A DNA stretch of 64,000 bases from a virus (IMGVR_UViG_3300048088_000314:26805-90804); one strand, 5' to 3'; shown: positions 8,001-62,655, counted from the stretch's first letter. Numbers and translations are program-made. The notes: generated by a model from the letters alone, not told the origin.

Positions 8001-10868
8001 TCCGCGCCATTGGCGCCGGCGCCGGTTTTCCCGGATACGGGCGGCTCAGGCACCATGGATATCCTGCAGGCGCATCAGGCTGTCTCAGATGCGCTCGACC
8101 AGGCGGGGCCTCGGAAACACGCTGTCGAGGCACCCGGGATCCCGCCGACTATTCCACCGGCGGTCAGTCCGGATACGGCGATAATGCTGCAGGCGCACGA
8201 CGACGAAGGCAACGCGATCGACACCACGCCCGAACCGACTCCGCGCGGAGTCGAACCGCCGACACCAGAACTGCGCGCAACCCCAACCTCACCGCGTAAT
8301 GAACAGGTATCGCAGGCGACCCAGGACGTTCTCCGGGAGCACGGCGAGATGCCGAGCGAGCCGTTCTATGGACGCGCCATCCCGTTCAGCCAGTTGCCCG
8401 AGCGCGGCGGTGGACCGCCAGTCCAGTACGGCATGCCGAGCGAAGGGCGCGGCGGAATTGGCATGCCGAGCGAGGCTGCCGTTCCGGTCACTCCTACGGG
8501 AATCAAGGGCGGAATCGGCACCGACTATGTCGAGCCGCCACCGCCGGATTGGACCCAGCCGGAGTATTGGACCCGGCAGCGCTACGAGCAGTGGAACCCG
8601 GCGACTCAGCCGGTGCCGTCCGCGCCCGCCGCTCCAACGCCGATGCCGCAGAGGCCTGTCGTCGCTACAGAAGGCCCGATGCCGCAGAGACAGGTCACCC
8701 CGCCTGCTACCGCAGAAGCGCCGGCAGCAGCGCCCGAAGCGCCAGCGGTCACGACGCCGACGACGGTATCGGCGGCGACCAAGCCAGACCTGTTCGCGCC
8801 AGCGCCGACAACGGCGGCTGCGCCAGCGACGGCTCCCGCCGCAGCGCCGGAGGTCTGGGGCGACTCACTTGGAGTCGGCGTCCACAACGTCCTCAAGAGC
8901 CCAGGCGGCTACCAGCATGGCGGCGACGATCCAAAGACGGTTTTCGGCGAGATCAGGAAGCAGCCAGAAAACCATTGGCAGGGCAAGGACGTGATCCTGT
9001 CGAGCGGCACCAACGGCAACGACATGCCGACCGTCCTCGAGACGATGAATTATCTCAAGGGACACGGCGCCAACGTCGCGGTCATTGGCTATGGTTCGAA
9101 GTACGCCGACAGGGACGCGCAGCTTCAGCAGTACGCCAAGGATGCCGGCGTTGCCTATGTCAAGGCGGGAGTCAATGACGGCACCCACATGAGCCCGGGT
9201 GGCTATGCGGACGCCACGGCGCGGGCCCAGCAGGCGCTCGCGACTTCTCGGGCTCCGAGAGCCATGGCTGATGGCGATGTCTATGCGTCCGATCCCAAGT
9301 CGCCGAACTCTGGCGCGGTCATCCCGAGCACCCCGACGCCAGCCGCGCCGGATGCGCGCAAATCTGCCGCGCAAACGAACGCGAAAACCGCTATCGACAC
9401 AATGGCGGGGCTCGGCGGCAGCAAGGTATTCCAGGCCGCAGGCCTTACCCATGCCATGTACGAGGGCGGGTTCGCTGACAATTGGGTGTTGAGCGGTATC
9501 CCCGGCGAGGACAGTCGCGGTCATTTGCAATTCAACGCGAACGGGCAGCGTCCGCTTTACGAGCGATGGCTGGCGGCTAACGGGAAACCTGTGGATTCGC
9601 ACAGCACGGCTGATCAGTTCGCCTACATGACCCAGTGGGTGAAGACGCATCATCCGGAGGCGTTGACGACCAATGATCCGCGGGTGGCGATGGATGCCAT
9701 CGGCGATTTCGAGCACTATACGGGATACGCGCCGGGCCAGGGCCAGCGGATGGGGAATTACCCAATCGCGGAGAAGATGGTCAACGGCGATCTCAGCGTG
9801 ACCCCGAGCGGGCCGATCGGCGGCACCCGCGGTGGTGGAGGCGCCGGTGGTGGCGCCGCGGGCGCAGGAACGGGGGCGAACCCCAACGCCCCTCCCGCAA
9901 CGCCGGAGAACGTCAGCAACGCCGCCCGGCAACTCTCCGCCCAGGCTCCGCCGCACGAGCGCAACGCCCTTTACACGTGGCTGCACAGCCCCGGCGGGAT
10001 GCTGTTTATGATCGGCGCCGGCATGCTCGCCTCCGGATCGCCGTACCCCGGCGTCGCGCTGGGCCAGGGTCTCGAGTTCGCGGCCAAGGGGCTGATGACG
10101 GGCGAGGCCCAGGAGAACAAGAACGAGCTCGCCGAGATCCGCGCCGAGCACTACCGCGAGATGGCGGATGCAGCCGCGGGTAAGCTGGGCCTGACCCAGC
10201 AACTCGGCGAGGGCCGGCTGGCGAACCAGCAGACGCAACTCCAGTTGACCGCTGAGCGTCTGGCCAATTCGCAGCAGGTCGCGCAGAACAACATCCTCAT
10301 CGCGACCCAGAAACTCGACTTGGCCAAGAGCGCGGAGGAGCGTCGACTGGCCGAGGGACAGCGCCGCGATGCGATCAAGATGATGATCGGCCTCCAGCCG
10401 AAGGGTGAGATGGCGATCCTCCAGGCAGTGATGGATCAGCCGAATGGACCCAAGACGATCCCCGAGGCTGAGGCGGCGATTGCCGCGGCGAAGCGTGATC
10501 CTTCCAAGGCACAGGGGGTCCAGGTCGCGATCGAGGCCGAGGCGCGCAAGCGAGCCTCCCTCGATCTGCAGGCGCACAATGCCGACCCGACCAACATCGG
10601 GCGCACCTTCGATACCCAGGCCGCGACCAAGCAGCACCTGGACGAGCTCCGGGCGACATTGGGGGCGACTGCGGCGCCCGCGGCACCCGCTCCGGCCGCT
10701 CCCGCTGCAGCGCCGCAAGGGGCGCCCGCAGCGCAAGGTGCAAAGCCCGATTGGGCAGTCCCCGTCCTGGGCGATCAGCATTACCTGGATGGCAAGCCGA
10801 TATTCACTGACGGAAGGGCGTGGTATTTCGGCGATCACACGCCGGCGGGAGCCGCCGCAACCCAGTAA
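5064..10868 (+). CDS. large DNA-ejection/virion protein with SGNH hydrolase and phage-tail-lysozyme-like domains
   Basis: Gln-rich pilot-like N-terminus (YLNPY); GDS...GTN...DGTH at 8859-9188; lysozyme-like E..G.LQF..R..QF.Y..FE at about 9380-9780. Confidence 0.8.
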   Translation: MSSQGATTTTSSAPPPQVMQNYTQLTGAATGVAQQPLNLYTAPVVAGFTPQQQQAFQDVQNASGIQTPYINAAAQEYATATTPLWPTLPTFGTGSVNTYLNPYTTDVTNQLTNLYDQQNAQAAAQLAGQSTTAGAYGGDREAVAQGIQTQQEQMAQAPTLAQVQQQGYQQAVNEFNNQQATQLAAEQANSWLASQAGFGLAGLGSQAQSAALQGASAEMQAGAAQQALAQQQLNVPYQQYQQTQAYPYQQLSFLTPIVEGTGSLSGGTGSTTQPPPSMLGQVAGAATAGAGLINAFPSSPSYPPVDYATNPTGGFARGGRLGFADGGGIGSGGLNLPGSPSGGIGTLNFPDLSISFIPPPPTSAGGKSMFNPTQPDVTTTTSGGGGGILGAVGPLLTIAKFVVPLIGAKDGGAMREHRAAGGTGGIGDYTSLATPALPVPTLELPWLKMMQHQQGSHMGAGPPKAPTPGAAPDPMKGVQDLGGAVGSLGKLFNSDSTGGDYGGGGDSTTTGKSGGGAIGRAHYQTGGPGPTSVPTSVMAQFGGAPPNVQSQLQQLLQLPLAQLQEMAVQYPPTTSQGQMIAQAIAQKQATPGSGTAPQTPAPQQPFVGLGGSGGSTGGTASLATSPESYGGTSHLASGGQAEAADTRGYVTPEELDPRPVVDHSGSTVKVNYPSEGKSLDLGLPPIRPERRAAGGSAGAAMPVVPHVSLSGGEWAPVPTSDASAPAHLPITGPANNAPLGGTQQAGENNTSPAAFFTSSMPTANGVAIPQLSNQMFGPVQGVTPGSGLPGWYAPLPQQTVFGTGPGGSTIFPTSTAFTPAMAPITSVYGGSVPTWAGGSSAPAPATGGTMTQDQIDQMNAATTAANYAQAASGYKRGGRFGEGGGIGGSRPFRGHFDEGGDLNPGDELPIPSAPVDAGYVDAGVAGSGAGPGTLDLLQEREAEDRVRADRALAKITASAEGKGGIGKSVTGHPMLMREPSAPLAPAPVFPDTGGSGTMDILQAHQAVSDALDQAGPRKHAVEAPGIPPTIPPAVSPDTAIMLQAHDDEGNAIDTTPEPTPRGVEPPTPELRATPTSPRNEQVSQATQDVLREHGEMPSEPFYGRAIPFSQLPERGGGPPVQYGMPSEGRGGIGMPSEAAVPVTPTGIKGGIGTDYVEPPPPDWTQPEYWTRQRYEQWNPATQPVPSAPAAPTPMPQRPVVATEGPMPQRQVTPPATAEAPAAAPEAPAVTTPTTVSAATKPDLFAPAPTTAAAPATAPAAAPEVWGDSLGVGVHNVLKSPGGYQHGGDDPKTVFGEIRKQPENHWQGKDVILSSGTNGNDMPTVLETMNYLKGHGANVAVIGYGSKYADRDAQLQQYAKDAGVAYVKAGVNDGTHMSPGGYADATARAQQALATSRAPRAMADGDVYASDPKSPNSGAVIPSTPTPAAPDARKSAAQTNAKTAIDTMAGLGGSKVFQAAGLTHAMYEGGFADNWVLSGIPGEDSRGHLQFNANGQRPLYERWLAANGKPVDSHSTADQFAYMTQWVKTHHPEALTTNDPRVAMDAIGDFEHYTGYAPGQGQRMGNYPIAEKMVNGDLSVTPSGPIGGTRGGGGAGGGAAGAGTGANPNAPPATPENVSNAARQLSAQAPPHERNALYTWLHSPGGMLFMIGAGMLASGSPYPGVALGQGLEFAAKGLMTGEAQENKNELAEIRAEHYREMADAAAGKLGLTQQLGEGRLANQQTQLQLTAERLANSQQVAQNNILIATQKLDLAKSAEERRLAEGQRRDAIKMMIGLQPKGEMAILQAVMDQPNGPKTIPEAEAAIAAAKRDPSKAQGVQVAIEAEARKRASLDLQAHNADPTNIGRTFDTQAATKQHLDELRATLGATAAPAAPAPAAPAAAPQGAPAAQGAKPDWAVPVLGDQHYLDGKPIFTDGRAWYFGDHTPAGAAATQ

Positions 10869-10882
10869 TCAAAGGTTAGAGT

Positions 10883-62577: not shown

Positions 62578-62597
62578 CGTGTTTCCTCGCTTGGTTT

Positions 62598-62655
62598 GGC
62601 CTCGTCAGGCGCCGCACTACGGCGCGACCGACTCCGCGCGGAGTCGGTTTCGGCC
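62598..62655 (-). ncRNA. type II hammerhead ribozyme whose stem III is the 16-bp palindrome
   Basis: ggcc GAAA ccgacucc-gcgc-ggagucgg UC gcgccg-uagug-cggcgc CUGACGA ggcc. Confidence 0.9.

Follow-up and report, generated by a model that had tools for sequence, protein, structure and literature searches.

A dispersed palindrome in a 90,804-bp virus genome as a putative docking word for a dimeric DNA-binding protein

The stretch of DNA analysed here, 64,000 nucleotides long and called the window below, corresponds to bases 26805-90804 of the IMG/VR virus record IMGVR_UViG_3300048088_000314 (G000; a soil phage, 90,804 bp, 95% complete, 64.5% G+C), for which gene calling based on a self-trained codon model yielded 105 genes. 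Scattered among these genes is the 16-bp palindrome GACTCCGCGCGGAGTC, which lies within coding sequences as well as in the gaps between genes (Table 1). An earlier note on this DNA had counted at least 10 perfect and 3 near-perfect copies, several of them extending to 18-22 bp. Our search recovered exactly these copies at the positions it had given, 10 exact and 3 near, while dinucleotide-preserving shuffles of the window, used as the background for copy counts, returned 0.00 exact matches and 0.10 with up to two mismatches. The note had feared that copies were overlooked; none with up to two mismatches had been missed inside the window. Four of the window copies form 18-bp and three form 22-bp palindromes, and one does overlap the stop codon of the XRE gene g88, as the note had said. 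In the full record the count rose to 15 exact and 5 near copies (1-3 mismatches) against 0 expected, the part that precedes the window contributing 5 exact and 2 near ones; the palindrome was at least 18 bp long at 9 of the exact copies of the record. The 12-bp core, CTCCGCGCGGAG, occurs 19 times in the whole record, and words belonging to the motif are the top over-represented words of the genome by a wide margin. The copies are also spaced more regularly than random (coefficient of variation 0.59-0.61, P = 0.01-0.025), at about one per 4.5-6 kb. Two of those lying upstream of the window, one exact (bases 8531-8546 of the record) and one with three mismatches (8600-8615), are 69 bp apart directly past the g15 stop (L129); they are mutually pairable, enclose two small hairpins in a fold of -43 kcal/mol, and stand at the start of the tRNA-array region.

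The distribution of the copies revealed that selection acts on the DNA word, over the protein sequence. Coding sequence makes up all but 16.5% of the genome, yet 10 of the 15 exact copies are situated outside it (P = 2e-5), and the intergenic ones sit in tight junctions with the order stop codon, few nucleotides, palindrome, few nucleotides, Shine-Dalgarno sequence, start codon. Within genes, as the earlier note had described, the word reads TPRGV in four proteins (g39, g40, the RecT-family g64 and g77; near copies read TPRGA and TPRGD) and RLRAE in two (the methyltransferase g44 and g59), and the third reading frame is used by no genic copy. TPRGV occurs four times, compared with 0.04 expected from amino-acid composition, and all four occurrences carry the motif spelling, with the rare codons ACT (used for 7% of Thr) and GGA (12% of Gly); the probability of that spelling given the peptide is ~0.001. 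These results bear out the proposal of the note that the DNA motif is selected over the protein, and so does the location of the genic copies, in Pro/Glu/Ala-rich linkers or no more than ~20 residues from a protein terminus. Such regions cannot be aligned to homologues, and a comparison for insertions at the phage's own genic copies therefore found no alignable homologous sequence. Copies with 0, 1, 2 and 3 mismatches number 15, 2, 2 and 1, and beyond that the counts are exactly those of the background, leaving no tail of decayed copies. Of the nine mismatches all but one affect the four outer positions, so the constrained unit is the 12-bp core. At the flanking positions -1/+1, 9 sites are paired, compared with ~8.6 predicted from independent base preferences. 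An assembly or library artefact, which the note had listed among the outcomes that would overturn its reading, is contradicted by the in-frame copies in intact open reading frames and by the presence of the word in independent assemblies. A link to GANTC and CcrM was rejected, GANTC words occurring at 0.8-0.9 of expectation in G000.

The true relatives of G000, identified through the capsid protein, are G016 (83% identity), G017 (71%) and the complete 91-kb genome G018 (69%), with about 20-24 structural genes in common. The core was found in none of these three genomes, apart from one site with one mismatch in G018. It was likewise absent from 78 loci (1.27 Mb) and five near-complete genomes carrying the g105 ATPase, an absence that says little about orthologous positions because these genomes share only genes 103-105 with G000. 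At the junction after g23, a stable hairpin stands directly past the stop in four of four related phages, each time with a different sequence, and in G000 that hairpin is the palindrome. In G016 the same place, after the g23 homologue, is taken by a one-mismatch version of a palindrome that belongs to G017. The latter genome (IMGVR_UViG_3300043765_000026; L239-L241) has its own dispersed palindrome, AATTCCACGTGGAATT, in 6-7 copies (at 2741, 11042, 28862 and 43178, for example) located in AT-rich, promoter-like gaps. The central 12 bp of AATTCCACGTGGAATT are the centre of the canonical parS site, TGTTCCACGTGGAACA (PMC4368675), and G017, which carries no ParB_N gene, may borrow the ParB of its host. 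Judged from these genomes, the word of G000 is not inherited along the phage lineage. The earlier note had named absence at orthologous positions in relatives as evidence against its proposal, and the absence found here, orthologous junctions included, speaks against the word being the phage's own operator.

Scanning IMG/VR brought up two further records that contain the word more than once. The first, G002, is a real phage fragment of 20.5 kb, ~20% of a genome, with tail, neck and Gam-like genes; it has two exact 16-mers and one further core, all at gene junctions, and no protein in common with G000. The second, G003 (IMGVR_UViG_3300010052_000161; L131, L132), is a 37-kb record labelled as a provirus and carries 12 exact cores with mixed flanks. 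G003 matches two contigs of a Planctomycetota metagenome-assembled genome (MAG), G021, at 73-81% nucleotide identity over kilobases, with a tetranucleotide correlation of r = 0.85, and this kilobase-scale match together with the shared signature indicates that G003 is at least partly planctomycete chromosome. G021 itself (isolate OH_CBlB_250, ~5.0 Mb, fragmented) holds 140 cores compared with 1 for the reversed control, and 116 of the 140 have the form S-R-core-Y-S. Every other genome had at most 12, in a set comprising 150 genomes sampled from the order of G021 and the 397 other members of its family; the only congener had 8. The word is about seven times denser in the phage (1 per 4.8 kb) than in G021 (1 per 36 kb), and its copies in the phage (16-18 bp, GA...TC form) vary less than those in the bacterium. 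The exact 16-mer common to G000 and G002 is harder to ascribe to chance than the core match with G021.

We then looked at how the word is placed in G021. Coding DNA accounts for 81% of the sequence, yet of 25 copies sampled 16 were intergenic and nine lay in coding sequence, where they read LRAE or TPRGV. Each intergenic copy sampled preceded one gene or more, and convergent gene pairs had no copy between them; the genes downstream were unrelated housekeeping ones (prs, dapB, those for a STAS protein and a DUF1559 protein) with no regulon theme, and an antitoxin-operator reading was rejected on that ground. At 50 sites the flanking dinucleotides, counted by half-site, were CA 46, GA 26, CG 25 and GG 3, and symmetric pairs numbered 11, compared with ~17 expected if the halves were independent, so that there is no complementarity past the core in G021. 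The core alone folds at only -3.7 kcal/mol. Non-covarying flanks and a weak core fold fit independent half-sites rather than a hairpin. Three orthologous sites could be compared between G003 and G021: the first differed by one substitution in the core, the second kept the motif in both genomes within ~25%-diverged sequence, and at the third the motif stood opposite unrelated sequence of near-equal length, an apparent short-patch replacement. Since these changes occurred without insertion, the copies arise and decay in place. Most G021 copies are solitary; on contigs C160 (L260: 2146, 2335, 2608) and C6 (L243: 2420, 2771) the core is centred in a ~60-bp imperfect hairpin, and these hairpins sit in 190-350-bp tandem-like repeat units.

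The earlier note had also named an abundant host repeat as evidence against its proposal, and the core is indeed an abundant repeat in one bacterial genome, that of G021. In the bacteria listed first the word was rejected as an abundant repeat, since the 120 matches in the genome collection each had one copy per 8 kb; bacterial matches other than G021 were single and coincidental. In Bryobacteraceae, five genomes carried 1-3 copies per 6-9 Mb, in a conserved mazF/pemK toxin gene beside an integrase, which we judged a coincidental coding match, and the Gaiellaceae matches were orthologous coding sequence. No known RNA family was found around these single bacterial matches. A metagenome scan with the 18-mer gave 42 scattered single matches, none multi-copy and none related to G000, and a literature search for the word returned only coincidental matches in eukaryotic sequences.

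Dispersed, invariant palindromes are already known from phages (Cluster O, 2015) and from bacteria (HIP1), with a function still unexplained, and these two are the nearest described parallels to the G000 word. The Cluster O mycobacteriophages carry a 17-bp dyad repeat, TGTTCGG-N3-CCGAACA, with 34 copies in Corndog; its arms are invariant, and in genomes of 70-90 kb it occurs between genes, at gene starts and in mid-gene, unoriented to transcription, leading the authors to predict a dimeric binder of unknown function (PMC4351075). The two repeats are alike in their many invariant dyad copies, genome-wide, between and inside genes, and the AAA-ATPase encoded by g105 of G000 is 54% identical to its Cluster O counterpart. 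However, the Cluster O repeat is kept across the whole cluster, whereas the G000 word is absent from every relative found and yet is present in an unrelated phage fragment and a planctomycete. Stoperators, as described in Cluster A, resemble the palindrome as many dispersed copies of one short site in phage junctions and genes, but they are asymmetric and oriented with transcription (PMC4351075), while the G000 word is a perfect palindrome and so has no orientation.

The highly iterated palindrome HIP1 (GCGATCGC) is an 8-bp word found about once per kb and common to many cyanobacteria, and it arises by substitution, not by transposition. Our word shares with HIP1 its restriction to a lineage, its genome-wide occurrence in coding and non-coding DNA (the 140 cores of G021) and its origin by substitution, seen here at the three orthologous sites; it differs in having a 12-bp core (16-18 bp in the phage), a density of 1 per 36 kb in G021, a range of one species among the 398 of the family, and a denser occurrence in the phage. 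Like DNA uptake sequences (uptake signal sequences, USS), the word is evenly spaced, has preferred reading frames and originates in place, but unlike them it is palindromic.

A third kind of comparison is offered by the Noc binding sites (NBS), the SlmA binding sites (SBS), the matS sites of MatP and the KorB operators of RK2, organising palindromes that are read by dimeric proteins. With these and with parS the G000 word has in common a perfect palindrome of 12-16 bp in tens of dispersed copies. It occupies the same 16-bp frame as parS and shares 8 of its 10 central bases (TCC-G-CG-C-GGA and TCC-A-CG-T-GGA), a single symmetric change, and differs in the outer bases. Sites of the parS type are normally conserved across genera, whereas this word is species-specific. 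What the present analysis adds to these precedents is a word that is not inherited along the phage lineage, whose core is amplified ~100-fold in one bacterial species but neither in its congener nor in 397 members of its family, and whose copies originate in place by substitution.

We give about an even chance to the reading that the palindrome is a docking word, written in place at permissive positions, for a dimeric DNA-binding protein that the host or an exchanged module would supply. The 12-bp core CTCCGCGCGGAG, with its two half-sites (c)GACTCCGC, would dock a dimeric, sequence-specific protein lying outside the inherited core of the phage, and the copies would be written by substitution or short-patch replacement at spots that tolerate them, namely the junctions between stop codon and Shine-Dalgarno sequence, disordered linkers and protein termini, and would be kept perfect and fairly evenly spaced. 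Transcribed copies would also form a 6-9-bp hairpin, one junction copy having presumably been recruited as a ribozyme stem. Binding might organise or occlude the genome, silence it globally, or mark it as 'self'. In this docking reading we infer that a protein reads the word, that it is a dimer, and where it comes from. Of the proposal in the earlier note that the motif is a site for a dimeric protein, the dyad-symmetric site stays the best general reading; no support was obtained for an operator of the phage's own with one of the proteins named there as its reader.

Several observations weigh against the docking reading, the first group concerning the readers that could be proposed. The divergent g73/g74 (Cro/YdaS-like) switch region at 47355-47456 holds no copy, the nearest being those at 40893 and 48729, and no repressor/operator relation of the kind seen with stoperators, which belong to a phage's own repressor, was found there. 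For the XRE protein g88, G021 yielded no homologue and viruses only distant ones, at loci that do not contain the word; no relatives of g77 were found. The giant g40 (10883-24718, plus strand; 4611 aa) combines InPase, N6-adenine methylase (N6_Mtase, Eco57I-like) and ResIII/DEAD helicase domains; this DarB-like protein is a methylase-helicase of the injected anti-restriction type and no obvious site-specific binder. The 1916-aa g39 (5118-10868), which precedes it, has no Pfam match. None of the candidate phage-encoded binders thus gained support. ParB as the reader likewise gained no support: the ParB_N domain (PF02195) is absent from G000, G002, G003, G017 and G018, and it was not detected in G021, an incomplete MAG in which even the canonical parB of its relatives is missing.

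The second group concerns the link between the phage and G021. Their tetranucleotide correlation is r = 0.68, no closer than that with other phyla, while sphingomonad loci reach 0.78, and no capsid similar to that of G000 was found in 401 Planctomycetota genomes. The search for prophages and the tetranucleotide signature therefore gave no support to a host in the G021 lineage; cultured capsid relatives (~35% identity) infect Alphaproteobacteria and cyanobacteria. The match of the core between G000 and G021 could be a coincidence, as only 4,096 12-bp palindromes exist, and the absence of shared genes means little, G021 being incomplete and G002 amounting to ~20% of a phage. So many perfectly identical sites are, in addition, unusual for ordinary transcription-factor regulons, and a role in RNA would also suit the placement in junctions and the ribozyme stem.

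This last possibility, a hairpin punctuating the RNA, is the strongest of the alternatives. Here a 6-9-bp GC-rich stem with a GCGC loop, placed at cistron boundaries, would serve in 3'-end protection, processing or translation of the next cistron, comparable with the stem-loops of repetitive extragenic palindromic (REP) sequences and the RNase III sites of T7, and the genic copies would be tolerated by-products. Co-directional genes flank eight of the 10 intergenic copies, which typically stand 1-20 nt past a stop and 11-22 nt before a start, and the 16-, 18- and 22-nt forms of the palindrome fold as RNA with -8.3, -10.7 and -15.7 kcal/mol. In the operon running from g105 to g98, three type II hammerhead-like elements fill consecutive junctions and two further junctions hold the bare palindrome. 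In the element nearest g105 the core GAAA...GUC...CUGACGA can be read directly and the stems are present, the one after GAAA being the palindrome with cc/gg flanks, so that after the predicted cleavage this hairpin would form the end of the upstream RNA. No hammerhead was seen in the equivalent gap of the ~28 g105-module relatives inspected. The hammerhead was rejected as a general explanation of the palindrome, a ribozyme core lying near only one copy.

An RNA role in the phage is plausible for some copies. It is insufficient for the whole, because it leaves unexplained the identity of the copies, the lack of covariation, the genic copies with rare codons, the even spacing and the bacterial pattern. 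A structural role by itself would not call for 15 identical sequences, and the hairpins that follow g23 in the four related phages differ in sequence; compensatory variation is absent at the flanks, and the near copies break the outer stem. As for intrinsic termination, only the copy at 8531 of the record is followed by a run of four T, and copies are also found inside genes. In G021 only the 12-bp core, with its weak fold, is conserved, its flanks do not covary, and the intergenic copies sampled stand upstream of genes and in none of the convergent gaps. We consider RNA punctuation possible but unlikely as the main explanation. The repeated RNA hairpin listed among the options of the earlier note holds in part, for the ribozyme stem and for the presence of a post-g23 hairpin in all the relatives.

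Quite unlikely, in our view, is a lineage-specific mutational or repair drive without any reader, similar to HIP1 or to uptake sequences, in which the phage, replicating and recombining in such a cell, has drifted to the composition of its host and the word has no function in the phage. Such a drive would suit a core that is spread over the whole genome of one bacterial species while 397 relatives stay close to background, copies that occupy coding and non-coding DNA in preferred frames, gain and loss by in-place substitution with one apparent short-patch replacement, and downstream genes without a regulon theme. It is difficult to reconcile with a density in the phage ~7x that in G021 and with the greater uniformity of the phage copies, and G000 is neither closer to G021 in composition nor represented by its capsid among the Planctomycetota. 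A specificity of 12-16 bp also far exceeds that of known words linked to methylases or repair, and the even spacing and 100% conserved core argue for selection.

A bolder variant, which we likewise hold improbable, is that a horizontally mobile reader or reader-writer system writes its palindrome over resident DNA, the genomes concerned being those of one planctomycete species and of two or more unrelated phages. The private 'self' word of the cell would in that case be several times denser in the phage than in the cell itself, perhaps as a means of escaping or exploiting a host system that tracks along DNA. If true, a HIP-like molecular drive would here have been caught in the act, common to a bacterium and its viruses.

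A mobile mini-element, either a REP/REPIN palindrome spread by a REP-associated tyrosine transposase (RAYT; IS200-like Y1 transposase) or a unit resembling a miniature inverted-repeat transposable element, is very improbable: it would account for a species-specific, abundant and mostly extragenic repeat in G021, for the few loci there that embed the core in longer imperfect hairpins within 190-350-bp repeats and for the three Y1_Tnp homologues of that genome, but these three loci have no core (up to two mismatches) in their flanks, the repeat-poor congener also has Y1_Tnp genes, the phage and G002 have none, none of the copies sampled in G021 lies in a convergent 3' gap, the three orthologous sites differ by substitution or near-equal-length replacement with no clean insertion, target-site duplications and conserved flanks are absent, a 16-bp insertion would shift the frame whereas the genic copies are in frame in intact open reading frames, and there is no tail of decayed copies.

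Returning to the docking reading, the contrasts between G021 and G091 and between G000 and G018 make the responsible protein tractable to find. A reader, if found, would explain a recurring feature of phage genomes that has so far had no function assigned to it, and the pattern suggests that such words could serve as markers of linkage between phage and host or between phage and module.

Table 1. Copies of the palindrome and hammerhead-like elements in the window, with single matches in Bryobacteraceae. Positions are those of the window unless a locus is named.
Feature	Position	Strand	Context
Exact copy, 18 bp	8237..8252	none	In Pro/Glu-rich linker of 1916-aa g39; reads TPRGV
Exact copy, 18 bp	12652..12667	none	In non-conserved linker of giant DarB-like g40; reads TPRGV
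Near copy, 2 mismatches at outer end, core intact	20290..20305	none	Within g40; reads TPRGA
Exact copy, 18 bp, intergenic	24829..24844	none	110 nt past g40 stop, 17 nt ahead of g41 start
Exact copy, 22 bp	28550..28565	none	Close to C-terminus of S-adenosylmethionine (SAM) methyltransferase g44; reads RLRAE
Near copy, 2 outer-end mismatches, core intact	38898..38913	none	Codons 4-8 of g59; reads RLRAE
Exact copy, 22 bp	40893..40908	none	Low-complexity C-terminal tail of RecT-family g64; reads TPRGV
Exact copy, 18 bp	48729..48744	none	Residues 20-24 of g77; reads TPRGV
Near copy, 1 mismatch, intergenic	52481..52496	none	Sole copy mismatched within the 12-bp core (GCAC for GCGC)
Exact copy	56489..56504	none	Convergent g87/g88 gap; overlaps stop codon of XRE gene g88, 56503-56889(-)
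Exact copy	59810..59825	none	g99/g98 operon junction (minus strand); Shine-Dalgarno sequence next; 22 nt ahead of g98 start
Exact copy	60172..60187	none	g100/g99 junction; 6 nt past g100 stop, 19 nt ahead of g99 start
Exact copy, 22 bp	62630..62645	none	g105/g104 junction; is the entire first hairpin of a hammerhead-like element
Hammerhead type II-like, stem is palindrome copy 62630	62590-62655 (outer bounds 62578-62661)	minus	RF02276 full-length, 29.2 bits, E = 0.004, gathering score 37
Hammerhead type II-like	61696-61769 (outer bounds 61687-61773)	minus	40.1 bits, over gathering score
Hammerhead type II-like	60680-60744	minus	Recognised by reading the sequence
Exact 16-mer, one each, in mazF/pemK toxin gene	L018:4431-4757; orthologues L009, L030, L063		Bryobacteraceae

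Other features of the genome deserve mention. Several 6-bp palindromes are strongly under-represented in G000, with GAATTC observed 0 times against 12 expected, GGTACC 0 against 6.7, AAGCTT 2 against 24.6 and ACGCGT 2 against 17, an avoidance that looks like that of restriction sites. The window contains a second capsid-like gene, g52 (34584-35678, plus strand), with ~41% identity to the major capsid genes of the relatives and assigned to PHROG major-head families; the true capsid gene of G000 lies outside the window. Finally, a nicotinamide phosphoribosyltransferase is encoded at 44232-45548 on the minus strand (phrog_448, E = 1e-145), adjoining the genes for RecT, an exonuclease and RusA.

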